Notes: generated by a model not told the origin, from the sequence alone. A DNA stretch of 64,000 nt from Candidatus Levybacteria bacterium RIFCSPHIGHO2_01_FULL_40_16 (GCA_001783805.1 MFNS01000001.1:257074-321073); one strand, 5' to 3'; shown: positions 15,602 through 36,125, counted from the first letter of the stretch. Made by a program: numbers and translations.

Positions 15602-16300
15602 ATGAAGATTTCGATTCTTACTCTTTTTCCCGAAATGTTTTCCGGCCCCTTTGATCATTCGATTGTTAAAAAAGCAAAAGAGAAAAAATTGGTTGATGTA
15701 AATTTTGTCAATATTAGAGACTTCGGCGTGGGTCCGCATAAAATTGTTGATGACAAATCATATGGAGGCGGACATGGCATGATTTTGAGAGTTGATGTTT
15801 TAGAAAAAGCGATTACGCAAACAAAAAATAAAAATCTCGGTATCTTGGAACAAAAAGTTGTTCTCTTAAGCCCACACGGAAAAACTTTTAACCAAAGAAA
15901 AGCTTTAGAATTTGCAAGCCTTAAACATCTTATTCTTGTTTGCGGTCATTACGAAGGAATTGATGAAAGGATAAAAAAGTTCATTGACGAAGAGTTATCT
16001 ATTGGGGATTTTATAGTTACAGGAGGAGAAATTCCCGCAATGCTTGTAACCGATGCCGTAGCAAGACTTGTAAAAGGGGTTTTGAAAGAAGGAGTAACTT
16101 CTACCGAATCGTTTTCTGAAATTCTTGAATATCCGCAATACACAAAACCCAATAACTACAAAACCCTTGCTGTGCCATCCATACTATTAAGCGGAAATCA
16201 TGAAAAAATAAAATCTTGGCGCGATAAAATTTCGCATAGGACAACTGAAAAACTGCGTCCTGATTTGCTCCGGTCAAATCGAAGTTTACTGGGACGCTGA
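15602..16300 (+). CDS. trmD: tRNA (guanine37-N1)-methyltransferase
   Basis: MKISILTLFPEMF, GGGHGM and a SPOUT-family C-terminus. The ORF track starts 24 nt earlier. Confidence 0.9.
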   Translation: MKISILTLFPEMFSGPFDHSIVKKAKEKKLVDVNFVNIRDFGVGPHKIVDDKSYGGGHGMILRVDVLEKAITQTKNKNLGILEQKVVLLSPHGKTFNQRKALEFASLKHLILVCGHYEGIDERIKKFIDEELSIGDFIVTGGEIPAMLVTDAVARLVKGVLKEGVTSTESFSEILEYPQYTKPNNYKTLAVPSILLSGNHEKIKSWRDKISHRTTEKLRPDLLRSNRSLLGR

Positions 16301-16954
16301 TGATACATTTTCAAATTTACTCAGTTGATCAACCAGGTCCAATCCTTTTTGAGATATAGAGCTGATACGAATATCTTGACTATAATTAGAAGCGCCTAAT
16401 GGCTTGTAATAGAAAGACAAACTTACCATCGAAGATGCGTTTCCCATTTTGACAGAATAAACTTCCGATAGGGGAACTGTTTTACTGATGGTTTCGACAA
16501 AACTATTTATCGCTGTAATCGAAGAGCTGATGGGTACGGACAATCTGACGACCGGAAAATTTTCATCACTTTCAGATTGAGCGAGATCACCTATTTTTAA
16601 CGAAAAACCCCCAAGATTAACACCGGTTTTTTGGGCAGTAGAATAAACGGAATTTAATATTTCAATAAAATCTTTATTTAAAGGTAATGCCAAATTTAAT
16701 ATCCGAAGCTGCGAATCAAGTGTCTCCTCATTGATATTGGTAAGCATATCTAGATTTTCCTTTAATATCTCAAGTTTTAACGACGATTCCCTGGTTTCTT
16801 TTATTGTTCTAAGCAATGCGTTAAACTGTGGAATTACAAATTGAAAAAAAAGTATTATAGAAACGAGTATTGTAACAACCGGAAATATGTAGGACTTGTT
16901 CTTATTAAAGATAAATTTTAAAGCTTTTAAATCTGCGTTTATTTTCTCGTTCAT
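16286..16954 (-). CDS. PilO-like type IV pilus inner-membrane assembly protein
   Basis: Single N-terminal TM segment followed by a coiled-coil-rich periplasmic domain, immediately downstream of pilN in the operon. Confidence 0.45.
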   Translation of the reverse strand: MNEKINADLKALKFIFNKNKSYIFPVVTILVSIILFFQFVIPQFNALLRTIKETRESSLKLEILKENLDMLTNINEETLDSQLRILNLALPLNKDFIEILNSVYSTAQKTGVNLGGFSLKIGDLAQSESDENFPVVRLSVPISSSITAINSFVETISKTVPLSEVYSVKMGNASSMVSLSFYYKPLGASNYSQDIRISSISQKGLDLVDQLSKFENVSSASQ

Positions 16955-16955
16955 A

Positions 16956-17489
16956 TCATAACTCCGACATTACTGAAATCCGATAAGCATTTGTACTCAC
17001 ATCCAAAGCCAAAGAACTGAGGGTTAAGGATTTAATTATTTCTTTATTGTGGACCATGTTTGTTAGGTTATCTATGAATTCACCGATTGCGAAAAGGGAT
17101 TTTGATTGACCGGCAATAATAACTGATTTGTCATCCACCTCAAAATCGTCTACGGATAGTTCGCTAGGTATTTTTGCCAACAGTCCATTCATTGTCTTTA
17201 TTAGATCCTTTCTCATTTTTAAAATTTTGTCAATATTTTCTATCCTATTATTTAAAACAAAAAGCTTGACTTGTCGGTTTTGAAATTGCGACACTCCTTT
17301 TAGAACATTTTCCTGTTCCCTCTTGATAGCTCCGGGATTGATAATTTGAATCCATATGAAAAGACTCAGGGAGATCAAGCCAACACCTATTAAAGATACG
17401 GCCGCGGCAAGGTTAAGAATTCTAATTTCTTTTTTCTTCTTTAACGATTCCTTGTCTGTACGTAAAAGAAGGTTAATATTTGCATTCAT
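16956..17489 (-). CDS. pilN: type IV pilus assembly protein PilN
   Basis: N-terminal INLL motif, a single TM segment, and a position directly after pilM. Confidence 0.6.
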   Translation of the reverse strand: MNANINLLLRTDKESLKKKKEIRILNLAAAVSLIGVGLISLSLFIWIQIINPGAIKREQENVLKGVSQFQNRQVKLFVLNNRIENIDKILKMRKDLIKTMNGLLAKIPSELSVDDFEVDDKSVIIAGQSKSLFAIGEFIDNLTNMVHNKEIIKSLTLSSLALDVSTNAYRISVMSEL

Positions 17490-18517
17490 AAATCTCTCAT
17501 TGCAAGACCCAATGCGATAGTAAAATCAGAAGCATTGTTGAGTATTTCGGAGGGCAAAGGTTTGCCTCCAAAAATTTTCCACGGGTTTGCGACAACTGTC
17601 TCTATACCTAAATTCTCTGCAAAAAATAGATCGATTCCCGGCAAGCGGGCAGTACCTCCCGACAGTAATATCTGCTGAATTATTGAATCATCTTTATATT
17701 TTTGAGAATAAAAAGCTAAGGCTTTCCTTATCTCTAAGAGAATTGAAGAGAGGATTGGCTCAGTAGACTTGCCAACTTTTTGACCGGCTCCTACCTTTGA
17801 AAAACCATAGGTTTTCTTATATTCTTCTGATTGGGCTGGAGTTATTCCGAAATCTGCCTCTATTGACCTACTAATTGCATCTCCTCCCGTTCGTATTGAA
17901 TAGGTTAAAATCAAAATTCCATCTCTGATTATAGCTAAGGACGTGTTGATCGCACCTATACTCACAATTATTGTTGGGGGAAGATCCGCAGAAACTAAGG
18001 CTCGAACAATTGCCAAAGTCTCTGTTTCTATTGAATTTAAAGTAAGATTTGCCATCTGCAATATTCTTTGATATTTGCCAATAAGATTCGTTGGCGCCCC
18101 CACCATCAGAACCTGCATCTTTTCATCGCTAGAGGAGTTAAGAGGTTTCTTCAGGACGTTCCAAACCAAAGTTATCGTTGATAGCGCAACCGGGATATGG
18201 CGTTCGGCTTCCCAATAAATCGCTAAGGACAATTCCTTGTCGGACAAAACCGGCATTTCTATAACTTTTGTATAGACTTGATTATCGGAAAGCGCAATAT
18301 TTACGCTTCTACTGTTAGTTTTTAAACCGTCCACTGTCTTTCTTATGGTCTGGGCCATTTCCCTCTCGTCAATTGGCGCTTCCGAAAGCATCCCTTTGGG
18401 GGGAGAAGACATTACGCTAAAGCTATCCAAAATAAGATTATTATTCTGCCGCGATAGGGATACTGCTTTAATTTTAGTTAAACCTATATCCAGGCCAATC
18501 GACTTATTAAATATCAT
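17486..18517 (-). CDS. pilM: type IV pilus assembly ATPase-like protein PilM
   Basis: Actin/FtsA-like fold motifs (GLDIGLTKIKAV, LSGGTARLPGI). Confidence 0.8.
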   Translation of the reverse strand: MIFNKSIGLDIGLTKIKAVSLSRQNNNLILDSFSVMSSPPKGMLSEAPIDEREMAQTIRKTVDGLKTNSRSVNIALSDNQVYTKVIEMPVLSDKELSLAIYWEAERHIPVALSTITLVWNVLKKPLNSSSDEKMQVLMVGAPTNLIGKYQRILQMANLTLNSIETETLAIVRALVSADLPPTIIVSIGAINTSLAIIRDGILILTYSIRTGGDAISRSIEADFGITPAQSEEYKKTYGFSKVGAGQKVGKSTEPILSSILLEIRKALAFYSQKYKDDSIIQQILLSGGTARLPGIDLFFAENLGIETVVANPWKIFGGKPLPSEILNNASDFTIALGLAMRDL

Positions 18518-18527
18518 CTGTTAGAAA

Positions 18528-19325
18528 CTAGTTAGCTACAAAAAGACCATATGATAGATAAGGCAGATAAGTCTGCGGATATCCCTTAAATACCCTGATT
18601 GTACGATTTGCTTGTCCTGATACTCCGGTTGAATCAATGCGGTACCCTTGGGTTGGAAAGGGTAAGGTTCCGCTAATTCCAACCGCTGTATTTCCATAAA
18701 TAGGTATAATTCTTGCAATCAAAGCTGAAGAGACGCCTGCAATAGTCGTTCCATGAGAGAATGTTTTTCCGCTCACATTTCCCCCATTGATAGACGGAGC
18801 TGAAAATTTATTTTCATTTTGTCTTGCTGGACAAGGATCATAGGCATATTTTTTTAATACCGGATTGTTTTTTGGTCCCGATACAATTATTATCTCAAGT
18901 GCAGAATTATCGCAGGGTGTTGTGGAATCACCCCAATACACGGTCAAATCTCCACCCCATAAAGGAGCCCCAAAATTAGATAACGGATCGGCGGAGTATG
19001 TAGATAGCCAAAGGTCAGCTCCTTCATCCTTTGGAACTGCAAGTCCTCCATTTAATAAAATCTGAGCACCATCAATTGTTTGAAATGTAGTCGTATATCG
19101 AGAGTTATTGCTTGGATTTTCTCCACTTAAGCCTATCGGAACAGTATTCTGTATTGCGCGTTCTATGCCTGCCTCCGCAGCAGCTAAGGCCTTTTGAGAT
19201 TCTACTTCTTCGGTTGTACTTCTAAGACTCGTAATACTTCTTGAGGCGAGAGACAATCCAATGGTCGACGCAACAATAACTACCAGCACTACAATTAAAA
19301 GAATCTGCCCTTTTTGTTTCTCCAT
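18528..19325 (-). CDS. PilX N-terminal domain pilus protein (minor pilin-like)
   Basis: KGQILLIVVLVVIVASTIGLSLAS hydrophobic start followed by ALAAAEAGIERA, typical of the PilX_N family. Confidence 0.5.
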   Translation of the reverse strand: MEKQKGQILLIVVLVVIVASTIGLSLASRSITSLRSTTEEVESQKALAAAEAGIERAIQNTVPIGLSGENPSNNSRYTTTFQTIDGAQILLNGGLAVPKDEGADLWLSTYSADPLSNFGAPLWGGDLTVYWGDSTTPCDNSALEIIIVSGPKNNPVLKKYAYDPCPARQNENKFSAPSINGGNVSGKTFSHGTTIAGVSSALIARIIPIYGNTAVGISGTLPFPTQGYRIDSTGVSGQANRTIRVFKGYPQTYLPYLSYGLFVAN

Positions 19326-19406
19326 ACAATTAGCATAACAAGAGGACTATTTCATGTCAACTTAAAGAAGCTACATTTATCCAGCCCCTTTCGAAAAGTG
19401 CTGGAT

Positions 19407-19964
19407 TTATTTCCTGTAATTCCGTATGGTAACTGAGGTTTTAAATGTAATTGGCGGGTTGCTATTTTCCACAAGGCCATTCGAATTTTTAGGTCCAAGC
19501 GCAAAACTTATTCCAATTATCGGCACATCCGTAGCGTTAGCCTGAGTACAGGTAAAAGAGCAGTTTGTTAAGGAAATCGAAGTATCTATAAGAGGAACTC
19601 CATCTACCGATAATTCAGTACTATCACACTTGTAAGTAATTGGATTACGATCCAGAGGGGTTATTTTTATAAATTTCACAGGGGGAGGGGGGTCATAAAA
19701 ACAGCTTGCAACATACGTTCCATCTGCGCCCGTCTCGCTTAGCCCATTGAATACCTGCGCGTACATTATATCTTTGGACATTTGGTTGAGAACATAATTT
19801 CCGCTTTGTCTAATATTCTCAATCGTATTTGTTTTATTAGCGCCCCGCAAAGAAGAAGAAATTATGCCAGAGATAATTGAACCTATGGCAATCAAAACAA
19901 TAATTGATGCCAGTAATTCAACCAGCGTAAAACCTTTATCTAATTTTGAATTGATAGTCATGGC
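19407..19964 (-). CDS. prepilin-type minor pilin
   Basis: KGFTLVELLASIIVLIAI class III signal (G|FTxxE). The start was chosen at the Met that overlaps the upstream gene end; the ORF track extends to 20039. Confidence 0.55.
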   Translation of the reverse strand, partial: AMTINSKLDKGFTLVELLASIIVLIAIGSIISGIISSSLRGANKTNTIENIRQSGNYVLNQMSKDIMYAQVFNGLSETGADGTYVASCFYDPPPPVKFIKITPLDRNPITYKCDSTELSVDGVPLIDTSISLTNCSFTCTQANATDVPIIGISFALGPKNSNGLVENSNPPITFKTSVTIRNYRK

Positions 19965-20503
19965 ACTTGTTTCTGATCGGTATTCGAAAAGCAAGTAATA
20001 AGCGTTACGTTGTGGCAAAGAGGTGTACCTATCGGGCATTTATTATCAGCCCAAGAAACTCTTACCGTAACTCTGCTGCCTCGGTCAATAACTGCGCAGG
20101 TTTGAGTATTGTCTGGACAACAGTCCGATGATCCCTGATCAAATTTAACTTCTCGAGAAAAGATTCCTCCTACAGGTACAGGACTTTGTTCTTTGCAGTT
20201 TTTGTTTGGAAGAGCAAGTATTACCAACTCCATAGGATTCTGACCAAGACAATATGCGGTATTCGATGTATAGGAAGAAAGTGTAGTCCAGCTGGAGTCT
20301 TTTATTTGCCTAATCACTGCCATTCCTTCTTGCGCATAGGAATTTGCCAAACCTTGATTTTTTGCATACTGAGCGTTATTTAAGGATGTGATTATCCCCA
20401 ATATTATTGCGCTCAATACCAATACCGAAACGCCAAAAGCAAGTAAAATTTCCAAAATCGTCTGTCCCTCCTCACCCCGGAATAGATTTTTCTGTTTTTT
20501 CAT
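19958..20503 (-). CDS. prepilin-type minor pilin (PilV-like)
   Basis: GQTILEILLAFGVSVLVL with Glu at +5 after the Gly; four Cys in the C-terminal half. Confidence 0.5.
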   Translation of the reverse strand: MKKQKNLFRGEEGQTILEILLAFGVSVLVLSAIILGIITSLNNAQYAKNQGLANSYAQEGMAVIRQIKDSSWTTLSSYTSNTAYCLGQNPMELVILALPNKNCKEQSPVPVGGIFSREVKFDQGSSDCCPDNTQTCAVIDRGSRVTVRVSWADNKCPIGTPLCHNVTLITCFSNTDQKQVP

Positions 20504-20614
20504 ACCTTGATTAAATAATCACTACTCTAGGTGTTTATCTATGTTGGTCAGTAATCGCTTAGATCCGGATAGTTTCTGTTAAAGTAAAACTGCACTTAAC
20601 CCCATAAATAATTA

Positions 20615-21073
20615 TTACTCAACGACTATGGTTCCTGTTTGTTCCGGATGCAGATAATTATAGTATCCATAGGTACCAGCTCCATCAAAAATAACCGAGA
20701 CGCCGCTTCCGTCTGGAAATCTGCCCAAGTTTAAAGCGGGATATGCATCATGAGTACTGGGTGGATTGGAAACAATCGCAGCTTCCTGACCGCTTTGATT
20801 AACCCAATTAACCAAGGTGCCAACTTTTATTTTTATAACTGCGGGATTAAAACCCTGTTTACCAACGCTTATTTCTTGTTTATTGCTAAATTTTGGCGCA
20901 GGAGAGGATTTTGAGGTTACTTTTGTTTCGCTTGATGGGAAAACTACAGAAGTTTGGTTCCTTGAAGCCAGCTTTTTTTGTGAGAAAAGAAGATAACCAA
21001 TTATGGCCATTACTGCCAAAATGCAGAAAATCAAAATGTCAAAAATAAGCTTTCTTCTACCTGTATTTTCCAT
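20615..21073 (-). CDS. membrane-anchored cupredoxin-like domain protein (copper ligands apparently incomplete)
   Basis: N-terminal TM anchor, then IKVGTLVNWVNQSG...THDAYP...GTYGYYNYLHPEQTGTIVV, which resembles a plastocyanin fold but lacks the Cys ligand. Confidence 0.3.
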   Translation of the reverse strand: MENTGRRKLIFDILIFCILAVMAIIGYLLFSQKKLASRNQTSVVFPSSETKVTSKSSPAPKFSNKQEISVGKQGFNPAVIKIKVGTLVNWVNQSGQEAAIVSNPPSTHDAYPALNLGRFPDGSGVSVIFDGAGTYGYYNYLHPEQTGTIVVE

Positions 21074-21152: not shown

Positions 21153-23141
21153 TTATGGCCTGTAGATGCTCACATGTGTTGCTTCGTTGCCGGCATCTGA
21201 TACCCAATAATAAACCGTATAGTGCATGAAGATAATCTGCGGGCACCCATTCACGAAATCGTTGATCAGATATTGATAATGATAGCTGGCTCCTGGCCCC
21301 AGTGTTAGCGGGAACGATGTTATCAGAAACGGATCATAAGTTATGCCGGAAGTTTCACTATGAGACTGCGACCAGAAGGTTATGGTATGGGTTGCCGATA
21401 CTGCATTATTGTTCTTTATGTCAACGTTATAATTAGGCGTCCAGTAGGCAGGCGCGCTTACACATACTTCTGCGCTGACTGTAGGATTACTAAACGCGAA
21501 TGGCGAGGAGGGTGCCGGTGTAGGAGTTGCTGTGGGAAGAGGAGTTGGGGTTGAGGTGGGAATAGACGTTGGCGTTGGGGTTGGATTCAATTTGATACCA
21601 AAGTTAACAGCGGCATTAGGACCAACCGAAGGAGTAAATGAAGTGGCAGTAGTAGCGGAATATCCGCTTGGCACACTTAATGAGACAGTGTAACTTCCCG
21701 AAACCGCATTCCAAACGTACTGACCGGAGGAATTGGTAGTTGCGGAAGAGGGCGTTCCGGGAGCAGAGATTGAAACAGTTGCTCCTCCTGAATAGCCCAA
21801 TTCTCCTCCGTCCTGTATCGCATTTCCATTTGAGTCTACAAATACGGTAGTTGTAATGGCGTATACGGGAACGCCGTTATAAAGGCTGGCTATTTCTGCT
21901 GACGACAACGCCCGGTTGTAAATGCGCACATCATCAATTTTTCCATTTATTGAATTGCCTCCGCCCGTATACGAGTCGCTGAAAGATCCTAGGAAAAATT
22001 TTGTCGCCGCAGTGCTTAAATTGCCGCTCTGATTATCTAAATCTTCCTGTATTCCATCCACATAAATTATTTGACTGGTTCCGTTATACGTAGCGGCAAA
22101 CTGATGAAACGCTCCGTCAGACCATTTTCCCGACGTTGTTAAACTACTAATTACCGCTGACGTTGTTCTACTTCTGTACTGAATGTTACCGCCTCCTACA
22201 TTCATATCCATGCTTATTGAACCTGCGCCATCCGATAATGGAAAACCAAAGACAACCCCTGAATCATTCGCATTTATTTGTATCCACATCATCACAGTCC
22301 AGGCATTTGTAAGTCCCAAATTATACGGAATCTGTATGTAATTACTGTCATTAAAACTGTATGCTTGTCCGATTTGACCAGCGACCAAGCTGGGAAGAGG
22401 ACTTCCGCCAAGAGTACCATTATTTCCATTAAAAGAATCATTAGCGTTGCCGTCGAATTTCCACCAGCCCACCAGACCGGGTATTGGGGTTGGGGTGGGG
22501 GTTGCGGTGGGAATAGGCGTTGGGGTTGGGGTAAGAATAGGCGTTGGCGTTGGGGTGGGAGCAGATGTTGGAGTCGAAAAGGGAGTAACGGTAGGACTAG
22601 GTATTGAAGTCGGAAGCGGAGTTGCGGTAGGAATTGTGGTAGGAATAGGCGTTGGCAACGACAATTGCACGTTAACTCTTCCCAGAGAATCAATTACAAT
22701 AAATCTTTGTTGACCATATCCGGAAAGCACAATGATATTGTCGGAACCCTGAGTTCCACCGGTTATTGTGGGAAAAAAAATAGTTTTACCAACACTGCCG
22801 GCATCAAAACTTACACCTCTCGGAAGAGTTTTTGTCGAAAGCGGCGGACCATTGATTCCGGAACCGGAACAACGACTCACTAAAGTATAGCTCGTATTCG
22901 AAACAATATTTACACCATATCCATCTAATGGATTGCATGCTCCGGAAGGCTTTATCTGCGATTGCGCGCGCGACTTGGCCAGATTCAACATCGTAACCAC
23001 CTCGTTGGTGGAAGTTTGCAGGACTTGAACTTGATTGTAATTTGCGAATCCTCCAATGCCCAATGTTCCCAAAACAGCTGTGATGCCTACTACAACCATT
23101 AGCTCAATGAGAGTAAAACCTTTTTGGAAAAATTTTTTCAT
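21153..23141 (-). CDS. large multidomain pseudopilin/adhesin-like protein (GspH/FimT-like pilin N-terminus, LamG lectin-like, CnaB/SdrD-like and novel C-terminal domains)
   Basis: [14 protein letters not shown] prepilin signal. Two TPTPTP linkers. A LamG-type block ([11 protein letters not shown]...[20 protein letters not shown]). A CnaB-like block ([30 protein letters not shown]). A C-terminal module shared with the 24697-26037 protein. Confidence 0.65.
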
Positions 23142-23620
23142 TTTAATACATTAGCTACAATAGTTTTTGTTTTTCCTCCGGAGGAGATAACAATTTGGCC
23201 CGGCGTATCCACTCCGCCCTTTTGTACCGGGAAGAAAAAAGAGGTGGGGAAAGTATCCGGACTTTTAAAACTTACATTTTGAGGAAGAGTTTTTGTTTGA
23301 AGATTGCTGGTAATTCCCGAGCAACGGCTGCTTAGCGTATAAGTCCGATTAATAATTGATATATCCACTTGGTATCCTTCCAGAATTTGCGAAGACGCGC
23401 TGCAGGATGTACCCATTTTCACCTGCGATTGCGCGCGCGACTTGGCCAGATTCAACATCGTAGTTACCTCGTTAGAGGAGTTCTGAAGAATCTGAGATTG
23501 ATTATAATTTGCAAATCCCGTAATACCCAATGCCCCCAAAGCAGCCATAATACTTATCGCAACCATTAGTTCAATTAGGGTAAATCCTCTCCGTTGCTTC
23601 GATTTGAAATTTATTTTCAT
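23138..23620 (-). CDS. GspH/FimT-like minor pseudopilin
   Basis: [57 protein letters not shown] is paralogous to the N-terminus of the 662-aa protein. Confidence 0.55.
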
Positions 23621-27558: not shown

Positions 27559-28398
27559 TTATTTAAACGCCAATAGGTGTTTTACTAAGCCTTGGGCATA
27601 GAGCTGTTGGATCTGGGAGAAAGTAAGAGCTTGTTTGTAAATCCGTACATCGTCGATAATCCCCTTAAATGAGGAGGTTCCACCGGAACTAATGCTGGAC
27701 ACGCCCGCAATGATATGCGATCCTGCTTGTTGAGTTACACTGTATCTCACTCCATTAACATAAAGTTTTGCCGTATTGGTGTCGGCATTATCGGTATAGG
27801 TTAAAACTAAGAAATACCAGGTATTTATGGAAGGATTCCAATTGATGTAATCGTTAGTGCTGCCAAAGTACAAGAAATTATTAGCGTAATGCTGATAAAA
27901 ATTATTGAACAAATGATTATGATTTCCCTTGTCTGATGCTGATTGATCCCAATAAAACCATCCTGTCTGAGTTTTTACTACGCCTGTCGCGGAAAAGTTT
28001 ATGTAAGCATCTGAACCATCAAAACTATATGCCTTGTTGGCTCTACCCCTTCTATCTGCTGTTAATGTAGCTCCTATTACCGTACCGTTATTCCTATATC
28101 CTGAGGTATCATTTGCATTGCCATCAAATGTCCATTCTCCGACCAGATCAATAGCGAGATTGTTGTTTATACTTGCTGCATATGTTTCCATATTAGCAAG
28201 CTTGGCGGAATTAATCTTTCCTGCCGGATCTATAGCTACAAGCACTCCAGTTCCTAAAACCCCCACTACCGCTATGACTATGAGAAGTTCGATAAGGGTA
28301 AACCCAGCACCACTTATAAAAACCTCCATTTGTTTTTTAAGTTCTTTTAATTCACGCAAGTGGTGCTGGGTAAACCCCCTTGACCAATGTTTTTCCAT
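27559..28398 (-). CDS. pilin-LamG fusion protein, paralog 2, with a 24-codon leader insertion
   Basis: MEKHWSRGFT-QHHLRELKELKKQMEVFISGAG-FTLIELLIVIAVVGVLGTGV... followed by the same conserved C-terminus. Confidence 0.7.
   Translation of the reverse strand: MEKHWSRGFTQHHLRELKELKKQMEVFISGAGFTLIELLIVIAVVGVLGTGVLVAIDPAGKINSAKLANMETYAASINNNLAIDLVGEWTFDGNANDTSGYRNNGTVIGATLTADRRGRANKAYSFDGSDAYINFSATGVVKTQTGWFYWDQSASDKGNHNHLFNNFYQHYANNFLYFGSTNDYINWNPSINTWYFLVLTYTDNADTNTAKLYVNGVRYSVTQQAGSHIIAGVSSISSGGTSSFKGIIDDVRIYKQALTFSQIQQLYAQGLVKHLLAFK
28306..28367. mobile_element. second copy of the 62-bp MITE-like element (same TIRs), with GGGTAAACCC duplications at 28296-28305 and 28368-28377
   Basis: The arms are identical to the copy at 24049-24110 and the internal 42 nt are similar (shared TTTTTTAAGTTCTTTTAATTCAC core). 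Confidence 0.6.
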
Positions 28399-28440: not shown

Positions 28441-29250
28441 TTAAAGTATCAATAGATGCCTTATTAAGCCTTGCGCATAGAGTTGCTTGATTTGGGAGGA
28501 TAAAAGCGCAGATTTGTAAACCCGCACATCATCAATTACACCATAAAAATAGGAATACCTGTTACCAATCCAAAGAGAGTCTGATGTCGTACCCGCATTT
28601 ATCGTTTGAGTAACAGTTCCTCCATATTGTGAACCATCAACAAAAGCTCTTAAAAAGCTTCCGCTCCAAGTAAAGACTAAGTGATGCCAGACACCGATGG
28701 TAGGCTTGCCAAAACTAACACTATTGTATGGCACACCGTTGTCTATGCTGCCCTCTATAGCGGTTGTTGTGAATACGGTAATGGCATAGCCGGGTGTATC
28801 CCATCCCGCAGAAGCCCCTTTACTTACTATGGCGGGGTATGTTCCGGCGCTATAAGAGCTTATCTTAATCCAAACCTCAATTGTCCCAGCATTTGTTAAA
28901 TTCAAGCTTGCGCCATTTCCCGCATTAATAAACGCCGTTCCGTTAAAGTTGCTTGCTTTATTCCTATCCCTCCTGTCTAATGCCGAGGTTACGTTAATCC
29001 CCATACCATTATTACCATATCCTGAAGTATCTTTAAAAGTGTTATCATCAAATGTCCATTCTCCGACCAGATCAAAACCAAGAGAGTTTTGTATTCCTGC
29101 CGAGAACGTCTCCGCCTTAGCAATATTGGCAGAATTAATTTTTCCTGCCGGATCTATGGCTACAAGCACTCCGGTTCCCAAAACTCCCACCACCGCTATG
29201 ACTATGAGAAGTTCGATAAGAGTAAAACCCCTTACTAAAATTATTTTCAT
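28441..29250 (-). CDS. pilin-LamG fusion protein, paralog 3
   Basis: [28 protein letters not shown]..., IDDVRVYKSALLSSQIKQLYAQGLIRHLLIL. Confidence 0.7.
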   Translation of the reverse strand: MKIILVRGFTLIELLIVIAVVGVLGTGVLVAIDPAGKINSANIAKAETFSAGIQNSLGFDLVGEWTFDDNTFKDTSGYGNNGMGINVTSALDRRDRNKASNFNGTAFINAGNGASLNLTNAGTIEVWIKISSYSAGTYPAIVSKGASAGWDTPGYAITVFTTTAIEGSIDNGVPYNSVSFGKPTIGVWHHLVFTWSGSFLRAFVDGSQYGGTVTQTINAGTTSDSLWIGNRYSYFYGVIDDVRVYKSALLSSQIKQLYAQGLIRHLLIL

Positions 29251-29254
29251 AAGA

Positions 29255-30106
29255 TCATCTAAATGCCAACAAATGTTTTACTAAGCCTTGGGCGTAAAGC
29301 TGTTTGATCTGGGAGGATAAAAGAGTAGCCTTATAAATCCGCACATCATCAATGGAGCCAGTGAAATAGTCCGCGCCTCTCCACCAACCAACTGCATATC
29401 CAATTCTAAATGCGTTTCCTCCGCTGTCTGCAAATCCTGCTGTTCCATTATTCGCTCGTTTATCCAATACGCCATCTATATAAATTGAATCAGTAATACC
29501 TGCCCTTGTAATCGCAATATGATGCCAGTTTGTGTTAGGTACTGCAGAAATACTGATAGATTGTCTATATGAACCACCACCATCCGTATACTGGAATTCA
29601 AGCTTGTTGCCAGTCTGCATAGTTAAAGCCCACTGATAATTACCTTTTCCCCATATTCCATTTTCTACGCCGAGCTGGTTGAGCTTAATCCATCCCTCAA
29701 TTGTAATCGCATTAGTAATATTCAAATTCGCCCCACTTCCTGTATTTATATAGCCCGAGCCAGCAAGGCTGTACGCTTTACTACCCCTATTTCTTCTATC
29801 TGGTGCTAGAGCTACACCGCTTCCTACTATTGAAGTTATATTTTCATATCCCGAAGTATCATTTGCATTACCGTCAAATGTCCATTCTCCGACCAGATCA
29901 AAAGCGAGATTGTTTTGCACACTTGCCGAGAAGGTTTCCGCCTTAGCAATATTGGCAGAATTAATTTTTCCTGCCGGGTCTATAGCTACAAGCACTCCGG
30001 TTCCCAAAACTCCCACCACTGCTATGACTATTAAAAGCTCAATAAGGGTGAAGCCTTTGGATCGAATAGCGAATAATGAATTATGAATAACGGTTTTTAT
30101 ATATAT
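29255..30106 (-). CDS. pilin-LamG fusion protein, paralog 4, with no ATG start (non-AUG start or pseudogene)
   Basis: The open frame reads [35 protein letters not shown]... from a TAG stop at 30107-30109. Candidate starts are ATT/ATA only. The ORF track begins at the internal Met at 30019. Confidence 0.5.
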   Translation of the reverse strand: MYIKTVIHNSLFAIRSKGFTLIELLIVIAVVGVLGTGVLVAIDPAGKINSANIAKAETFSASVQNNLAFDLVGEWTFDGNANDTSGYENITSIVGSGVALAPDRRNRGSKAYSLAGSGYINTGSGANLNITNAITIEGWIKLNQLGVENGIWGKGNYQWALTMQTGNKLEFQYTDGGGSYRQSISISAVPNTNWHHIAITRAGITDSIYIDGVLDKRANNGTAGFADSGGNAFRIGYAVGWWRGADYFTGSIDDVRIYKATLLSSQIKQLYAQGLVKHLLAFR

Positions 30107-30181
30107 CTAGTAAATCACGCTTTACAAAGCTTGTCAAAGAAACTGAACCCAAAAGAGTAAATCAAGAAATTATATAAAGTT

Positions 30182-31462
30182 TTATTTACGCGGATAACAT
30201 TGCTGGCAAAAAATAGTATCCGTATTATTAAACCTATAGAGCGAAAACGAGTATAGCCTGACATCATAGCTTCGAGGAACCTTAATTCCAACAAGCAACG
30301 GGTAATAAATTGCAAAAATGATTATACTGACCAATATTGTAGACGCAAGTAACTGCAATTTTATTTTTGTTTTCCGGATTAATAGTAAAAACATTATTAT
30401 TGCCATGGGAATAAGCGGGATAATATAATAGTAAAAAGTTGCATGTAGATTAAAAAACCACGGTAAATAAAGCAGGGAAAACACCATAACAAGAAAGCTT
30501 TGCTTTTTTTGTTTTAATATTCCTTTCCGCAAAATGAAAATCATAGATGCAACTAAAGAGATTAGGGTAAAAATTGTTATAAGTGGATTTGCAAATGCAA
30601 TAATAGACATTACGCTCTCTCCTTGTGGAACTCGATAAAGAGTTAATATCTGCGGGATTGTGAACCATGTCCAGGCAGGCGAGTGAAGATAACCAGACAG
30701 ATTAATTACCCCTCCAATTTGAGAATTGAATAATCGATATATAAATTCTGCAAATCCAATACTGGTCTTCTTAAAAAAGAAGATACCATTGCCAATGGTA
30801 AAGGCTAGGGAAAGAAAAGTTAGAAATAAGAAATTAATTTTTGCAATTTCTCGCAATTTTAGATTTTTCCCCTGATTAAAAATCATGAACAATAAAGGAA
30901 AAAGGGGAATGAGTAAAACAGCTGACAATTTCGCTGCAAGAGATAATCCTAAGAAAATTCCGCTGACGTAAAAAAGCTTAAGTTTTTTCCCATCAAGATA
31001 TTTTAAATAATAATATATGCTGGACAGCAAAAAGAACAATGCGGGAATATCCAGCTGCAATAATCGGCTAAAAGTGAAGAACATAGGGTCAATGGCAAGC
31101 AAGATAACGCAAAGGAAAGATATAGTCTTAGAAAAAAAGACCCGGGCAATTTTATAAAAGACTAGAAGTGATCCAATGGAAAAAAGAATAGTTCCAAGTC
31201 TATAAAATATAGGTTTATATATTCCGGTTATCCCGGAAAATATATATACGAAATAATACCAGATTGTTTTCGCTAGAAGAGGATGATTATTATTGTCAAT
31301 TTTTCCGTCTAATAAAGAAAAAACACTTGACCTATACACTTTTTCATCACCAACTAAAAGCCCAATTGAGTTTATGTTGTAAGCTAAAAGGAATAGATAA
31401 AGCAAAAATAAAACTATAATAATAGAAAGAAGATTTCTTTTAATAATCAATTTAAAATCCAT
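30182..31462 (-). CDS. GT-C fold PMT/ArnT-like (GT39/GT83-type) polytopic glycosyltransferase
   Basis: At least 10 predicted TM segments, a first-loop GDEKVY acidic motif and an HPLLAK motif resembling the GT39 HPPL box. It lies immediately downstream of the candidate major pilin gene. Confidence 0.5.
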   Translation of the reverse strand: MDFKLIIKRNLLSIIIVLFLLYLFLLAYNINSIGLLVGDEKVYRSSVFSLLDGKIDNNNHPLLAKTIWYYFVYIFSGITGIYKPIFYRLGTILFSIGSLLVFYKIARVFFSKTISFLCVILLAIDPMFFTFSRLLQLDIPALFFLLSSIYYYLKYLDGKKLKLFYVSGIFLGLSLAAKLSAVLLIPLFPLLFMIFNQGKNLKLREIAKINFLFLTFLSLAFTIGNGIFFFKKTSIGFAEFIYRLFNSQIGGVINLSGYLHSPAWTWFTIPQILTLYRVPQGESVMSIIAFANPLITIFTLISLVASMIFILRKGILKQKKQSFLVMVFSLLYLPWFFNLHATFYYYIIPLIPMAIIMFLLLIRKTKIKLQLLASTILVSIIIFAIYYPLLVGIKVPRSYDVRLYSFSLYRFNNTDTIFCQQCYPRK

Positions 31463-31526
31463 ATTAAAGCGATTTTCTCATTTTCCTAAAAATTAACAAT
31501 ACAAGGGGATAGAGAAGTTCCAATCT

Positions 31527-31997
31527 TTACGGACAGGTTGTTTGAGCGGCAACAGCAGTGATGGAAGTTTTGAAAACAGCGTTAGTAGAATCCCAGCACC
31601 AAAATGATCTTGTAGTCGGACTGAATAACGCTCCCCACACTGCAACATTTTGTCCTGCAACTCCGGTGTAGCAGTAGTTTGTAGAGTCAGCGCCAGCTGC
31701 AGTTACACAACCGAGATTGCCAGATTGCTGATTAGGCAAGACCTTTAATTCTCCAGGTACAAGAGACGACAACGCAACTGGATAAATAGGCGCAGGCTGC
31801 GCTGTATAATATGCCTGCAAAGCGCTGACTAGTTGACTCATGTCGCTTTTGATTGTTGAATCCTTGGCTGAATTAATTTTTGCAACAGGATTAATGGCTG
31901 CGATAACTGCTGCTGCCAAAACTCCCAAGACTGCAATGACGACCAGAAGTTCGATTAGGGTGAAGCCTTTGTGGGAAGATTTATTAAATAATTTCAT
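31527..31997 (-). CDS. pilA: type IV pilin, candidate major pilin
   Basis: [37 protein letters not shown], about 150-aa mature protein adjacent to pilC. The ORF track extends to 32075. Confidence 0.6.
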   Translation of the reverse strand: MKLFNKSSHKGFTLIELLVVIAVLGVLAAAVIAAINPVAKINSAKDSTIKSDMSQLVSALQAYYTAQPAPIYPVALSSLVPGELKVLPNQQSGNLGCVTAAGADSTNYCYTGVAGQNVAVWGALFSPTTRSFWCWDSTNAVFKTSITAVAAQTTCP

Positions 31998-32071
31998 GTT
32001 CTTAATTAGTAAAACAGAAAAATAAATGCTTGTCAAGTGGCAAAATAGCCTCAATTTTCTTTTACTCATTT

Positions 32072-33289
32072 TCATTTTATTGATGAAGTGATTTGATAGA
32101 TTGGCGTGATTATAGAGAATATCAGAAATGCAACTCCAACGCCTAGCACCACCAAGATAAATGGTTCCATTGCGGTTGAAAGGGTCTTCACGGATTGATC
32201 AACTTCGTTTTCAAAATATTCAGATGCTTTAGCGAGTGTCTCATCCAATTTTCCCGTCTGCTCTCCGATCTTAACCAGCTCTATCAAATTGAGAGGGAAA
32301 AGATAATACAGGCTCATCGCATCTCCAATACTTATTCCTTTTTCCACCCTTTTTGAGACATCCACAATTGCATTTTTATAATGAATATTACCGGTAATAT
32401 CGGACACTTTATCCAAAGCCTCAACTACCAATGTCCCCGATGCCAACAGGGCACCAAGAGTTCTGGAAAATTCTGCCAAGATTGTTTTTTTTATCAGACT
32501 GCCAAAAATAGGAAGTTTCAATTTCATACTATCTATAGTAAGCTTACCCTCCATTGTTTTGTACCAGCGTTGGTATGCAAGCCAGACGAGAACCAAGAAC
32601 GCTATGACGATAAACCAAAATGAAACAAAGAAATTTGAAATTTTTATCAGGATGAGTGTTGGCAACGGTAAAGAAATGTTCATGCTCTGGTAAAGTATGG
32701 AAATTTGAGGAATAACAAAAATCATCATTATAAAAACTACAATCGCCATCATGAGAATAACGATTACCGGATATGTAAGCGCGCCCCTGATCGTATTTTT
32801 CAGTCTTTGCTGTTTTTCCAAAGTATCAGCCAGTCGCAAAAAGGCCTTATCCAAAAGACCGGATCCTTCAGATGCTTCTACCAACGCTATATAAACCGGA
32901 GAAAAGACTGTAGGATGCTTTGCAATTGCGCGGGAAAAACTTGACCCTTCCTGAATATCCCTGATAATGCCGTCTATAATGTCTATCAAAGTGTGATTTT
33001 CGATTTGATTTTTTAATATCTCCAGACTTCTTAAAAGAGTGAGTCCCGAACTAAGCATCGAAGACAATTGTCTGGTAAAATTAAGCACTTCTTGAGACCT
33101 AACTCTATCTCCAAGAAAGGGTATTAAATTTACAAATCTGTTTTTCCCCCTTTTAATTATCTCTATCGGAGTGAGCTCTTTGCTTCTAAGATACGCTGCT
33201 GCTTCGCTTGGGTTTCTTGCTTCGATTATTCCACTAATTGGTTCTCCTTTATCGGTTACAGCTTTGTAGTACAGTCTCATATTAGCCAA
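32072..33289 (-). CDS. pilC: type IV pilus platform protein PilC (GspF family)
   Basis: Two GspF-type repeats with three TM segments; it overlaps pilT by 8 nt and the pilin gene by 4 nt. Confidence 0.85.
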   Translation of the reverse strand: MANMRLYYKAVTDKGEPISGIIEARNPSEAAAYLRSKELTPIEIIKRGKNRFVNLIPFLGDRVRSQEVLNFTRQLSSMLSSGLTLLRSLEILKNQIENHTLIDIIDGIIRDIQEGSSFSRAIAKHPTVFSPVYIALVEASEGSGLLDKAFLRLADTLEKQQRLKNTIRGALTYPVIVILMMAIVVFIMMIFVIPQISILYQSMNISLPLPTLILIKISNFFVSFWFIVIAFLVLVWLAYQRWYKTMEGKLTIDSMKLKLPIFGSLIKKTILAEFSRTLGALLASGTLVVEALDKVSDITGNIHYKNAIVDVSKRVEKGISIGDAMSLYYLFPLNLIELVKIGEQTGKLDETLAKASEYFENEVDQSVKTLSTAMEPFILVVLGVGVAFLIFSIITPIYQITSSIK

Positions 33290-34349
33290 CCATTCTTAAG
33301 AAGTCCTCCTGATGCAGGGAGTAGCTTTTGCCTATATCCAGACTAATACTTCCTGACAAAACCAGAGCAGACAAGGATGAATCTATGCCAATCATGCCTT
33401 TGTCTTTGGAAGTTTGTATTACCGAATCTATAAGATGGGTCTTTCCGTCCCGCACAATGCTCGCAACCGCAGGAGTCCCAAGGAGAACCTCTACAGCGGG
33501 CACTCTTCCTCCGCTGATCATCGGCAAAAGCCTTTGTGAAACAATCCCCTTCAGGGTGGCAGCCAGCTGAATTTTTATTTGAGACTGCTGTGTTGCGGGA
33601 AATGAATCAATGATTCTGTCTATGCTTTGAGCCGCCGAATTTGTATGCAGGGTTGAAAAAACCAGATGTCCTGTTTCGGCAATTGTGATCGCGGCGGCAA
33701 TTGTTTCGGAATCCCGCATTTCCCCAACCAGTACAACATCAGGATCTTCACGAAGAGCCGCACGAAGGGCAAAATCCCAAGAGTGAGTATCGATGCCCAT
33801 TTCACGCTGGCTGATGATACTCTTTCCCTTCGGATACACATATTCAATCGGATCTTCGATGGTTACTATGTGAGCCGCTCTTTTCAGATTTATTTCGTTG
33901 ACAATTGAGGCAATGGTCGTAGATTTTCCATGCCCTGTCGGACCGGTAATTAAGATAAAGCCCTGAGTTAAATCCGAAAAAGTATGTAAAACTTGAGGCA
34001 AATGGAGCTCCTCGATAGACAATATGCCGGGATTAAGAAAACGGAAAGCGCCCGAGAGATTTCTTCTCTGGTAGTATAAATTCGTCCGGAAGCGGCCAAG
34101 ATCCCCATATGCTCCCCCTCCAAAACCAAAAGAAAAATCCAACTCTTTGTTGGCGAGCAATAGTTCTTTCTGAACAGGATCTAACAATGAATATACCATT
34201 TTTTCTATTTCCGGCAGGGTTAACGGCGCGTATCCGGTTAAATATCTTAAGGAACCGTCTATTCGAAGTGTGGGAGGAATACCGACCAAAAGATGCAAGT
34301 CCGAGGCTTTTTCCTTAACTGTTATCTTAAAAAGTTCTTGTATATCCAT
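33282..34349 (-). CDS. pilT: twitching-motility/retraction ATPase PilT
   Basis: Walker A GPTGHGKSTT, Asp box and His box; no N-terminal GspE_N domain. Confidence 0.8.
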   Translation of the reverse strand: MDIQELFKITVKEKASDLHLLVGIPPTLRIDGSLRYLTGYAPLTLPEIEKMVYSLLDPVQKELLLANKELDFSFGFGGGAYGDLGRFRTNLYYQRRNLSGAFRFLNPGILSIEELHLPQVLHTFSDLTQGFILITGPTGHGKSTTIASIVNEINLKRAAHIVTIEDPIEYVYPKGKSIISQREMGIDTHSWDFALRAALREDPDVVLVGEMRDSETIAAAITIAETGHLVFSTLHTNSAAQSIDRIIDSFPATQQSQIKIQLAATLKGIVSQRLLPMISGGRVPAVEVLLGTPAVASIVRDGKTHLIDSVIQTSKDKGMIGIDSSLSALVLSGSISLDIGKSYSLHQEDFLRMVG

Positions 34350-34352
34350 ACA

Positions 34353-36125
34353 TTATTCCTGCGCAACGCGCAGCACTTCTTCAACCGTAGTTATGCCTTG
34401 CAAAACCTTTAGGTATCCGTCCTGCTTCATTGTAATCATGCCTTCCAGAATTGCTTCTTTTTCCATTGTAGCACTATCTGCGTTCTCCAGAACCAGATTA
34501 GCAATTTTAGGCGTGACAGGCAGGGTTTCGAAAATTCCAATCCTGCCTAAGTATCCTGATTTCCCGCATTGATCGCAACCTTTTCCGCGGCTTAGTTTTA
34601 TATCCGGTTGAGTTTGGGGAAAAATTTTTCCTAATACTTTTTTAATTTCATCCAGTATTTGGGGCAGAGGAGGGTATTTCTCTTTGCAATTATCGCATAT
34701 TCTCCTAACAATCCTTTGTCCCAAAATCGCATTCATTGTTGATGCCAGAAGAAAATTTTCTGCTCCCAAATCCAAAAGTCGGGGGAGAGCCCCCGCAGCA
34801 TTCGAAGTGTGCAAGGTTGAGAAAACTAAATGACCGGTAAGGGCTGCCTGCAAGGCAAGCTCGTTGGTTTCTTTATCCCGAATTTCCCCGACCAATATTA
34901 TATTTGGGTCTTGACGAAGAAAAGCTCTAAGTCCGGTTGCAAAAGTAAGTCCGACTGCGGGATTTACCGCGACCTGATTTACTCCGGGCAACTGATATTC
35001 AATCGGATCCTCCAAAGACATAATATTGACCCTGGTTGTATTAAGTTTTGCCAAAATTGAATAAAGGGTTGTTGTTTTACCTGCCCCCGTCGGACCGCAG
35101 ACAAGAATAATTCCATGCGGTCTAAGCATTGCGGTTTCTATATTTCTAAGCGAATTTCCATTCAGACCCAGTTCATCCAAGGTTGGTATTCCTCCAGTTT
35201 TCCTAAGGAGCCTCATGAGTATTTTTTCTCCATGCGAAGTTGGCAAAACGGATATACGCAGATCCACCTCCTCATTGGAAATTTTGAAATTAAATCGGCC
35301 ATCCTGAGGAAGGCGATGTTCGTCAATCTTCATTTCCGATAAAATTTTTATACGTGAAATAACCGCATCCTGAACATTTTTTGGAAGGCTTAATTTGTCA
35401 TACAAAATTCCATCTATTCTGTATCTTACTCTGACCCGATCCTCCTGGGGCTCGATGTGAACATCCGATGCTCTCGAAGTTACCGCGTATTCCAAAATAG
35501 TCGAAACTATTTTGGCAATTGGAGCCTCTTTAATTATCTCGCCGATTTGCTTACTATCGACAGTTCTTGTCTTTTCGTAAGCCTCTGTCTCTGCTAAGGC
35601 CTCACCAACCTCTCCTACGATTTCCTGACTATATTGTTCACTGATTGCCTTTTTTACTTCCTCTTTGGCTGCGGCAAAGGATTTTATTGTCAATCCTGTT
35701 TTTTGCGCAACGAATTGCAGTGCTTCCAGATCTACGGGATTACTCATTGCTATAGAAAGAGTCCCGGCTTTTTCGTCATAAAGGAAGGGAATTAGGGAAA
35801 ATCTTTCTACAACCGCTTTAGGAATAAGACTGATTGCTTGGGGAGAAAAAGACGTTGTTTCTAAAGATATGAAAGGAACACCGAGTAATTTTGCTTTTGC
35901 TTGGGCAAGCTTTTTCTCCGGAACTATATTCATTGCCTCCAAAATACCTGTAGCAGATACACCCTGACTGGTACTTTTAACTTTTATGTCATCGTATTGT
36001 TCCTTAGTAATTAAATTATCCTCAAGTAAAATCTCGAGAAGAGTTTTATGCTCCGGCAATTGTTGCGTGTTAAAATCTGAAGTAGGCATTACTTTAATAA
36101 TAGGTAAAAATAAACTATAATTCAA
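34353..36125 (-). CDS. pilB: type IV pilus assembly ATPase PilB (GspE family)
   Basis: N-terminal T2SSE_N domain, Walker A GPTGAGKTT, and a tetracysteine zinc motif (CDNC...CDQC). Confidence 0.9.
   Translation of the reverse strand: MNYSLFLPIIKVMPTSDFNTQQLPEHKTLLEILLEDNLITKEQYDDIKVKSTSQGVSATGILEAMNIVPEKKLAQAKAKLLGVPFISLETTSFSPQAISLIPKAVVERFSLIPFLYDEKAGTLSIAMSNPVDLEALQFVAQKTGLTIKSFAAAKEEVKKAISEQYSQEIVGEVGEALAETEAYEKTRTVDSKQIGEIIKEAPIAKIVSTILEYAVTSRASDVHIEPQEDRVRVRYRIDGILYDKLSLPKNVQDAVISRIKILSEMKIDEHRLPQDGRFNFKISNEEVDLRISVLPTSHGEKILMRLLRKTGGIPTLDELGLNGNSLRNIETAMLRPHGIILVCGPTGAGKTTTLYSILAKLNTTRVNIMSLEDPIEYQLPGVNQVAVNPAVGLTFATGLRAFLRQDPNIILVGEIRDKETNELALQAALTGHLVFSTLHTSNAAGALPRLLDLGAENFLLASTMNAILGQRIVRRICDNCKEKYPPLPQILDEIKKVLGKIFPQTQPDIKLSRGKGCDQCGKSGYLGRIGIFETLPVTPKIANLVLENADSATMEKEAILEGMITMKQDGYLKVLQGITTVEEVLRVAQE

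Follow-up and report, generated by a model that had tools for sequence, protein, structure and literature searches.

The question raised by this locus is whether a run of pilin-like genes in a candidate phyla radiation (CPR) genome encodes one complete type IV pilus, and what such a filament would be used for. The stretch analysed, referred to throughout as the window, comprises 64,000 nucleotides of Candidatus Levybacteria bacterium RIFCSPHIGHO2_01_FULL_40_16 (GCA_001783805.1, MFNS01000001.1:257074-321073), a member of the Microgenomates group within the Patescibacteria group. On its minus strand, positions 16286-36125 carry 22 open reading frames (ORFs) in an uninterrupted run with small gaps or overlaps, instead of the 20 consecutive genes counted in the first-pass annotation; all features of the cluster described below lie on this strand. 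The region is read, with a probability of about 0.85, as a complete type IVa-like pilus locus of the monoderm, secretin-less type. Gene content, domain assignments and fold form the direct basis of this reading, and from them we infer the assembly, tip location, glycan binding, glycosylation and retraction of the filament.

Profile searches agree with the earlier identification of PilB, PilT, PilC, PilD, PilM, the PilX-like protein, the pilins and the LamG fusions. The PilB-type assembly ATPase (34353-36125; 578 aa from the gene-caller start) matches Pfam T2SSE at 4.6e-126 and carries an N-terminal MshEN domain (1.6e-13); in NCBIfam it scores 2.5e-163 with the PilB model and 2e-169 with the GspE model, both below the equivalog cutoffs. 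The PilT retraction ATPase (33282-34349; TIGR01420 pilT_fam 2.9e-128, T2SSE 8.9e-43) passes its family cutoff with 427.9 bits against the 319.1 of TIGR01420, and the platform protein PilC (32072-33289) displays two T2SSF domains (1.2e-59) along with a GspF/PilC match in NCBIfam (5e-103). The prepilin peptidase PilD (25899-26681) is recognised by A24_N_bact (1.6e-32) and Peptidase_A24 (2.5e-16), and PilM (17486-18517) by PilM_2 (5.5e-48) and by TIGR01175, with 189.7 bits against a cutoff of 133.

The remaining parts of the alignment complex have weaker matches. The PilN-like protein (16956-17489), with an N-terminal INLL motif and one transmembrane segment, matches Pfam PilN with an E-value of 0.0062, and its best match in PDB is PilN of M. 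xanthus (3jc8, E 0.094); its ortholog in a sister Levybacteria species, here called L061 (GCA_015661365.1), reaches 1.2e-4 with Pfam PilN. The PilO-like protein (16286-16954), which combines one transmembrane segment with a coiled-coil-like region, is encoded after PilN and has PilO as its single Pfam match (E 0.075); its comparison with PDB sequences returned nothing useful. Position and topology fit the PilN and PilO-like proteins named in the first-pass annotation, and together with these top matches they lend weak support to what appear to be PilN and PilO. PilQ and PilP had been reported as missing, and no match to a Secretin or PilP family was obtained in profile searches for any ORF of at least 120 aa in the 64-kb window, a result that would be expected of the monoderm, CPR version of the machinery (PMC6744442).

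A class III-type N-terminus was read in 13 genes of the cluster, and 12 of the 13 display the motif G|(F/Q)xxxE; the exception is the PilX-like gene, which does not encode Glu5. The earlier estimate was of at least 11 pilin-class genes; 13 pilin-like genes are counted here from motif and profile evidence. The protein encoded at 31527-32075 (182 aa; N_methyl 1.3e-9, cleavage motif SHKG|FTLIELL) is proposed as the major pilin from its size and its position directly after pilC; its mature length is 145 aa, and an internal ATG giving an 11-aa leader is its likely start. Two GspG-like pilins are encoded further along, one of 162 aa with the leader MRRG|F (24159-24647; N_methyl 1e-7, TIGR01710 1.3e-12) and one of 181 aa (23617-24162; N_methyl, T2SSG, TIGR01710 1e-14), whose 39-aa leader contains an insert discussed below.

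Four further subunits are minor pilins. A GspH/PpdA-like pilin of 160-168 aa (23138-23644) is supported by N_methyl (2.8e-8), PRK10506 (9e-11) and GspH (4e-7). The pseudopilin-like product of 19958-20503 (181 aa, like the GspG-like pilin above) carries the motif GEEG|QTILE and is a candidate analogue of GspI/PilV, with a weak GspI match (0.026) and a 57% identical ortholog in L061. It is accompanied by a ComGF/GspJ-like pilin of 184 aa with LDKG|FTLVELL (19407-19961; ComGF 6e-5, TIGR02532, motif) and by the PilX/GspK-like pilin of 265 aa (18528-19325; PilX_N 3.7e-5, GspK N-terminus 0.0096). The GspH/PpdA-like, the weakly GspI-like, the weakly ComGF/GspJ-like and the PilX_N/GspK-like proteins look, by analogy, like the conserved H-I-J-K set of priming and tip proteins. 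The pilins listed after PilD in the first-pass annotation stand, except for the product of 20615-21073, which is a membrane-anchored, cupredoxin-like non-pilin (Cupredoxin_1 1.8e-4, below cutoff; Amicyanin 3.6e-5). Its gene lies among those of the minor pilins, so that the eight genes from pilD to the PilX-like gene comprise this one and seven that are pilin-like. A 33% identical homolog of this protein is encoded at 11493-11996 of an unrelated CPR contig (L096), about 4 kb from type IV pilus genes.

The adhesive character of the filament is suggested by four tandem pilins that carry LamG modules. LamG pilin 2 (28441-29250, 269 aa; Laminin_G_3 1.4e-22, N_methyl), LamG pilin 3 (27559-28398, 279 aa; Laminin_G_3 1.2e-10, N_methyl) and LamG pilin 4 (26708-27532, 274 aa; Laminin_G_3 5.5e-20, N_methyl) follow LamG pilin 1, whose open frame extends over 29255-30106 (Laminin_G_3 2.1e-26). 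In these paralogs, the coding sequence of the α-1 helix shares about 75% identity with the corresponding part of the major pilin gene (repeat D2); the C-terminal helix is conserved, and the pilin part is reduced to the α-1 helix. An AlphaFold2 model of LamG pilin 4, built with 25 homologs, has a mean predicted local distance difference test score (pLDDT) of 75 and consists of the α-1 helix, a ConA-like β-sandwich (jelly-roll) and the C-terminal helix. Foldseek placed carbohydrate-binding domain 4 of the arabinanase AbnA (5hon) first, with E 3.9e-12, and the other top matches were the lectin-like sub-domains of clostridial neurotoxin Hc, the lectin domain of a trans-sialidase, and the CBM40 of NanA. 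The modelled fold thus supports the proposal of a modular adhesive pilus, as put forward in the first-pass annotation. The family is not confined to this genome, as 225 relatives were found, mostly in Patescibacteria.

LamG pilin 1 is exceptional in its start. Its RSKG|FTLIELL is intact, and the listed ORF (29255-30019) begins past the N_methyl motif; from the upstream TAG (30107-30109) to the cleavage site there is no ATG, GTG or TTG. ATT and ATA are the only near-cognate start candidates, and no Shine-Dalgarno sequence is visible within 30056-30109. The sequence is unchanged in every independent metagenome contig that covers the gene. Either the gene is silent or its translation begins at ATT or ATA. 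Overall identity among the paralogs is about 50%, but they contain mosaic blocks: the 5' parts of LamG pilins 2 and 4 are 91% identical over 300 nt, and the 3' ends of LamG pilins 3 and 4 are 89% identical over 111 nt. A database protein (P0032, a 194-aa fragment) joins the leader of LamG pilin 3, with the insert discussed below, exactly to the body of LamG pilin 1; it could be the product of a cassette exchange between members of the array or an assembly chimera.

These features could be taken to mean that the array is a variation system, in which LamG pilin 1 would be a silent cassette and lectin bodies would be swapped behind an expressed leader by recombination through near-identical 5' and 3' ends, by analogy with Neisseria pilE/pilS or the PilV shufflon. 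The mosaic blocks, the missing start codon of LamG pilin 1 and the hybrid fragment all point in this direction. Nevertheless, all eight independent contigs of the species that were compared are 99.98-100% identical wherever they cover the cluster, and six of them include the entire LamG array; no rearrangement and no within-species variation is visible. The hybrid is a single fragment that may have arisen in assembly through the shared repeat, the cluster encodes no dedicated recombinase, and the only tyrosine recombinase of the window (53632-54585) is 17 kb away. A variation system is therefore considered very unlikely.

Two larger modular pilins extend the repertoire of putative adhesins. 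The first (24697-26037, 446 aa; N_methyl and T2SSG, weak; TIGR01710 8e-8) starts with a GspG-like pilin module and ends with a C-terminal domain, and between these a middle domain is set between two proline/threonine-rich (P/T-rich) linkers. Its leader overlaps the 3' end of pilD by 139 nt (25899-26037) in another frame, and gene callers cut the protein to 397 aa, starting past the cleavage motif. The second (21153-23141, 662 aa; Laminin_G_3 8.6e-23, SdrD_B 1.5e-9, N_methyl) begins with a GspH-like pilin module, a P/T-rich linker and a LamG module; next come an SdrD_B/CarboxypepD_reg Ig-like domain and, past another P/T linker, a C-terminal domain of 115 aa. The 5' end of its gene is 78% identical in nucleotides to the adjoining gene of the 168-aa pilin (repeat D8). 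Structure prediction, usable for LamG pilin 4, failed for this protein, its single-sequence AlphaFold model having a pLDDT of 35.

The C-terminal domain of about 115 aa is common to the 662-aa (21156-21500) and 446-aa (24700-25045) pilins with 60% identity, and it is rare: an exhaustive profile search gave 35 matches among 1.84 billion representative proteins. Beyond the two pilins of the window, these matches are small membrane-anchored or CARDB-like proteins and include no pilins.

Directly downstream of the 182-aa pilin gene lies the gene of a GT-C fold membrane glycosyltransferase of the PMT/PMT_2 family (30182-31462), which had been recognised in the first pass and is confirmed by PMT_2 (2.6e-15) and PMT (2.5e-11); no sequence match was found in PDB or NCBIfam. 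The PMT-family signature and the long P/T linkers suggest, by inference only, that pilins are O-glycosylated, and the candidate role of the enzyme is probably the O-glycosylation of pilins or of their P/T linkers, which resemble the substrates of actinobacterial Pmt.

From these components the following working scheme may be proposed. Up to 13 pilin-like proteins would have their class III leaders removed by PilD. PilB would then polymerise the 145-aa major pilin, together with PilC as platform and an alignment complex of PilM, PilN and PilO, into a filament that PilT would retract. A secretin would not be needed because there would be no outer membrane to cross. The GspH/I/J/K-like minor pilins (160, 181, 184 and 265 aa) would prime assembly and sit at the tip. 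The modular pilins, namely the four tandem paralogs of α-1 helix plus LamG and the 446- and 662-aa giants with their P/T-rich linkers, would display ConA-like lectin and other β-sandwich modules, and may thereby bind host or surface glycans.

Several observations weigh against this reading. The PilN and PilO matches are below curated thresholds, the major pilin is assigned from position and size only, and the search that gave no secretin covers the window alone. LamG pilin 1 may be silent because its canonical start codon is missing. The 446-aa pilin could start only at codons within the 3' end of pilD, which would give it a leader of 38-43 aa, and no solved structure could be related by sequence to the GT-C enzyme.

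The GspG-like subunits raise the alternative that the cluster encodes mainly a competence (Com-type) pseudopilus, or one like that of the type II secretion system, for DNA uptake or secretion, with the three GspG-like pilins as its real subunits. The 446-, 162- and 181-aa pilins do score best to GspG/ComGC models, and several minor pilins score to ComGD/E/F and GspH/I/J models, but all of these matches are far below the equivalog cutoffs. Natural competence of CPR bacteria has been reported and pili have been tied to DNA uptake (PMC6744442; PMC10187176); however, the cluster contains no ComEA or ComEC. PilT above its family cutoff, PilM, and the weakly supported PilN and PilO are hallmarks of type IVa pili, and the five lectin-module pilins favour adhesion. 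This alternative is accordingly judged quite unlikely, although functions in adhesion and in DNA uptake or secretion are compatible and not mutually exclusive.

It is rather unlikely, too, that one machinery builds two or more distinct filaments, one from the 182-aa pilin and another from the 162- and 181-aa GspG-like pilins, each with its own modular tips. This possibility is prompted by the presence of two small-pilin families with different globular parts, by a gene order of two blocks split by pilD, and by the thin and thick type IV pili made by the Saccharibacteria strain TM7x (PMC11623550). TM7x, however, uses separate loci and ATPases, whereas the window holds a single set of PilB, PilC and PilMNO.

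The locus is conserved beyond the species. Exact protein matches include the NCBI assembly GCA_001782335.1, of a Candidatus Levybacteria bacterium of the RIFCSP series. A comparison with Microgenomates, for which the first-pass annotation had called, reveals that the sister species L061 keeps the gene order: a LamG pilin, PilD, a LamG-containing pilin, a GspG-like pilin, further pilins, PilX, PilM, PilN, PilO and trmD. Its proteins are 40-87% identical in amino acids to those of the window, the values being 75% for PilX, 87% for PilM, 65% for PilN and 66% for PilO, the last two being encoded at the same place as here. The L061 contig breaks in the LamG region. An inserted AbiEii toxin gene pair (1425-2275) separates the LamG pilin gene of L061 from pilD.

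A second finding, the presence of short inserts in the leaders of two pilins, was overlooked in the first-pass annotation. A repeat search detected a similarity of 93 nt between the 5' ends of the otherwise unrelated genes of the 181-aa GspG-like pilin and LamG pilin 3 (repeat D9). In each case it corresponds to an in-frame palindromic mini-element of 68 nt on the minus strand, at 28303-28370 in LamG pilin 3, with TTTA direct repeats at 28371-28374 and 28299-28302, and at 24046-24113 in the 181-aa pilin, with TTTA at 24114-24117 and 24042-24045. The arms, CCCAGCACCACTT and AAGTGGTGCTGGG, form a perfect inverted repeat of 13-14 bp around a loop of 42 nt, and a search for the arms gave four matches against 0.01 expected. 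Each insert, 68 nt plus the duplicated TTTA, amounts to 72 nt, and the frame is kept.

The leaders with inserts read ...GFTQHH-LRELKELKKQMEVFI-SGAG|FTLIELL and ...GFTQHH-FCELKKLKEKIYLIG-SGAG|FTLIELL; that of LamG pilin 3 comprises 32 aa, MEKHWSRGFTQHHLRELKELKKQMEVFISGAG|FTLIELL. Prepilin leaders probably tolerate the inserts because these preserve the frame and their right arm restores Gly(-1), as ...SGAG|FT. An empty pilin site is represented by GGGTTTACC. In the L061 ortholog of the 181-aa pilin the site is empty and reads MTRGTRG|FTLIELLVTIAIIG. In the leader region of this L061 ortholog (~4740-4765), a different short palindrome (ATGCCGAAATAAATTCGGCAT) was observed. Two other explanations of the inverted repeats were rejected: an invertible switch or shufflon, given that the arms are only 42 nt apart and no variant orientation occurs in any contig, and integron attC sites, given that there is no GTTRRRY core.

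The origin of the inserts is indicated by copies outside the window. A scan of public metagenomes for both arms returned at least 119 ORF-less hairpin stretches, and 80 loci were listed with their sites. Among these 80 loci, hairpins are located inside RNase P RNA (13), 16S rRNA (4) and 23S rRNA (4), and in other pilin genes a further 12 hairpins coincide exactly with the G|F codon junction; the remaining hairpins among the loci listed are intergenic. With the two of the window, the unique hairpins at pilin junctions number 14, and 13 of them are free of stops in the pilin frame, against a baseline of 53%. A direct repeat of 4 nt (TTTA, TTCA, TCAA and similar) flanks 18 of 73 unique copies, where about 0.3 would be expected, which is the signature of a target-site duplication.

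Four related loci (L096 at 4785-5075, L103, L100 and L118) have an intact GIY-YIG ORF of 80-90 aa between these arms, and its frame continues across the right arm into a pilin. When proteins were searched with the fusion of L096 (4808-5440), 85 relatives were found. In Patescibacteria, at least 52 cluster representatives (190-370 aa), frequently annotated as 'GIY-YIG nuclease family protein', have an N-terminal GIY-YIG domain and a pilin body, with the conserved junction ...NGNxLRELKKRIG...KSGAG|FTLIE at residue 86-131; some of the pilin bodies match T2SSG or Laminin_G_3. The closest nuclease-free pilin relatives have ordinary leaders, for example MKKNG|FTIIE. In PDB, the best matches of the GIY-YIG domain are the UPF0213 proteins 1ywl and 1zg2 (E 1.5e-4). 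Full-text literature searches found no description of a GIY-YIG domain fused to a pilin or prepilin.

The window itself contains no GIY-YIG ORF in a tblastn search, and its two copies are both ORF-less. In alignment, the loop of the LamG pilin 3 insert matches the 3' end of these nuclease ORFs, and none of 500 shuffles did as well; the best reading of both inserts is that they are ORF-less miniature derivatives of a mobile GIY-YIG/palindrome element. A separate, free-standing GIY-YIG gene of 98 aa and of a different subtype is located at 3250-3546 of L096, between pilB and pilC of another CPR pilus cluster; type IV pilus loci may attract several GIY-YIG elements.

The stability of the hairpins suggests another explanation, in which, instead of being remnants of a mobile element, they would act as RNA structures under selection in pilin mRNAs and in structural RNAs, for instance as a brake on translation, an RNase III site or a hairpin bound by protein. 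The predicted RNA folds have energies of -39.6 kcal/mol (z -5.2) for the LamG pilin 3 insert and -39.3 kcal/mol (z -7.1) for that of the 181-aa pilin. The stems are 100% conserved while the loops have diverged, and many organisms have the same stem in hairpins of their RNase P RNA and rRNA. This explanation does not account for the flanking 4-nt repeats, for the full-length copies with a GIY-YIG gene between the same arms, for the empty site of the sister species and of the pilins most closely related, or for the homology of the LamG pilin 3 loop with the end of the nuclease ORF. Selection as functional RNA is hence regarded as unlikely, though it can coexist with a mobile origin if the element has been domesticated.

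We give about even odds to a more specific proposal, namely that the leader hairpins are footprints of an undescribed element lifestyle, in which a GIY-YIG gene serves as prepilin leader, is released by PilD and remains silent. The element, defined by the arms CCCAGCACCACTT and AAGTGGTGCTGGG, would enter prepilin genes of CPR bacteria at the TTYA contained in their GGN-TTY-ACN codons, and its small nuclease would then become the leader peptide of the prepilin. With the right arm encoding ...SGAG and rebuilding the Gly(-1) cleavage site, the PilD of the host would presumably set the nuclease free in the cytoplasm and leave the mature pilin intact. Such a parasite would resemble an intein, have no effect on the phenotype and make use of a protease of its host. 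It would also colonise the tips of RNase P RNA and rRNA hairpins, and the copies in the window would be two decayed, ORF-less remnants.

These leader inserts matter more than the cluster itself. If the proposal of GIY-YIG genes in leaders cut by PilD is true, it would represent a new way in which selfish DNA persists in essential surface genes; it would explain many annotations of 'GIY-YIG nuclease family protein' for proteins of 200-370 aa in Patescibacteria, these proteins being pilins; and it would tie unexplained short insertions in the rRNA and RNase P RNA of CPR bacteria to one element family. The cluster, for its part, adds a well-resolved Microgenomates case to the evidence that CPR bacteria invest in secretin-less, lectin-bearing pili, and offers candidates for host recognition in its five LamG modules, its rare C-terminal domain and its pilin-linked GT-C enzyme.

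The surroundings of the cluster are housekeeping genes, with trmD, rnc, recG, tyrS and a class A penicillin-binding protein (PBP1) on one flank and holB, a Mur ligase, FemAB, gyrB, an H+-pyrophosphatase and gyrA on the other. Between gyrB and gyrA (42078-49377) lie a 219-aa ORF with no family match and the gene of the membrane H+-pyrophosphatase (44845-46881). The tyrosine recombinase at 53632-54585 is XerC/D-like (Phage_integrase 2e-42), and no link between it and the LamG array was found. Scans for promoters (63, against 51.6 in shuffled sequences) and terminators (17, against 17.8) did no better than the shuffles.

The pilus locus may finally be compared with known systems. In CPR genomes, PilB, PilT, PilC, PilO, PilN, PilM, PilD and pilins are enriched and co-localised and PilQ is absent (Meheust et al. 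2019, PMC6744442), and in the Saccharibacteria strain TM7x lectin-like minor pilins mediate host binding (PMC11623550). The locus described here resembles the CPR loci (PMC6744442) and those of TM7x (PMC11623550, PMC9894109) in the co-localisation of PilB/T/C/D/M/N/O with multiple pilins, in the lack of PilQ, and in lectin-like C-terminal domains on some minor pilins, with presumed host attachment. It differs from TM7x, which has four loci for two systems, in forming one operon-like run of 20 kb with 13 pilin-like genes. The tandem array of four LamG pilins, the 446- and 662-aa pilins with P/T linkers, and the embedded GT-C enzyme also set it apart from the CPR and TM7x loci.

More than 1,200 modular pilins have been described, with PF13385 (carbohydrate binding) among the 15 most frequent architectures and with CPR examples (Raynaud et al. 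2021, PMC8179133), and the S. sanguinis PilC structure is a solved case of a pilin with Ig and ConA-like lectin modules (PMC9934059). As in S. sanguinis PilC and PilB (PMC9934059, PMC8179133), a pilin module is fused here to a ConA-like lectin/glucanase-fold module of the PF13385 class; a tip location would be expected, and the secretin-less envelope would permit bulky subunits. By architecture, the 662-aa pilin is likened to S. sanguinis PilC in having an Ig-like module beside the lectin. In contrast to that protein, the pilin part of the LamG paralogs is only the α-1 helix, and five LamG pilins are present in place of one. The GT-C gene, in turn, recalls TfpW, the GT-C pilin glycosyltransferase of the P. 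aeruginosa group IV pilA-tfpW pair (10.1101/2020.04.19.049825): a multi-pass GT-C gene lies immediately downstream of the major pilin gene in both, a likeness of position and fold class. Unlike TfpW, a pilin arabinosyltransferase, the enzyme of the window matches PMT/PMT_2 and is protein O-mannosyltransferase-like.

For the leader inserts, the nearest parallels are the Ssn GIY-YIG nucleases with their flanking NTS/SRM hairpin repeats (PMC11893778) and the GIY-YIG ORFs in non-intron insertions of CPR rRNA genes (PMC11270868). With these they share a small single-domain GIY-YIG gene between inverted hairpin repeats, as in L096, L103, L100 and L118, and many scattered ORF-less hairpins, some of them in rRNA. 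Unlike Ssn/NTS, copies lie in frame inside protein genes and coincide exactly with the site of prepilin cleavage, the frame of the ORF continues across the right arm into the pilin, and the duplication is of a 4-nt TTYA type; in a comparison limited to PDB, the nearest solved relatives of the nuclease are UPF0213 proteins (1ywl, 1zg2) and no named Ssn.

Rickettsia palindromic elements (RPE) are likewise inserted in frame in protein genes, and inteins are removed from their host proteins by self-splicing; RPEs are not known to have an associated nuclease gene. The pilin inserts have in common with RPEs that a selfish palindromic element survives inside an ORF by keeping the frame, and with inteins that the added peptide would be removed post-translationally. 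They bear no sequence relationship to either and, unlike inteins, would be removed by the host prepilin peptidase with no self-splicing.

It follows from these comparisons that the pilus locus is a rich example of a kind already published. The traits that the first-pass annotation had considered unusual are present, but PilQ-less loci and modular pilins have been published before, and what distinguishes the locus is quantitative: a single run contains 13 pilin-like genes with five LamG modules between them, and the gene of a GT-C enzyme is embedded in it. Previously unreported details are the LamG pilin 1 gene without a canonical start and the mosaic structure of the LamG paralogs, and more novel than these are the element footprints embedded in the pilin leaders.

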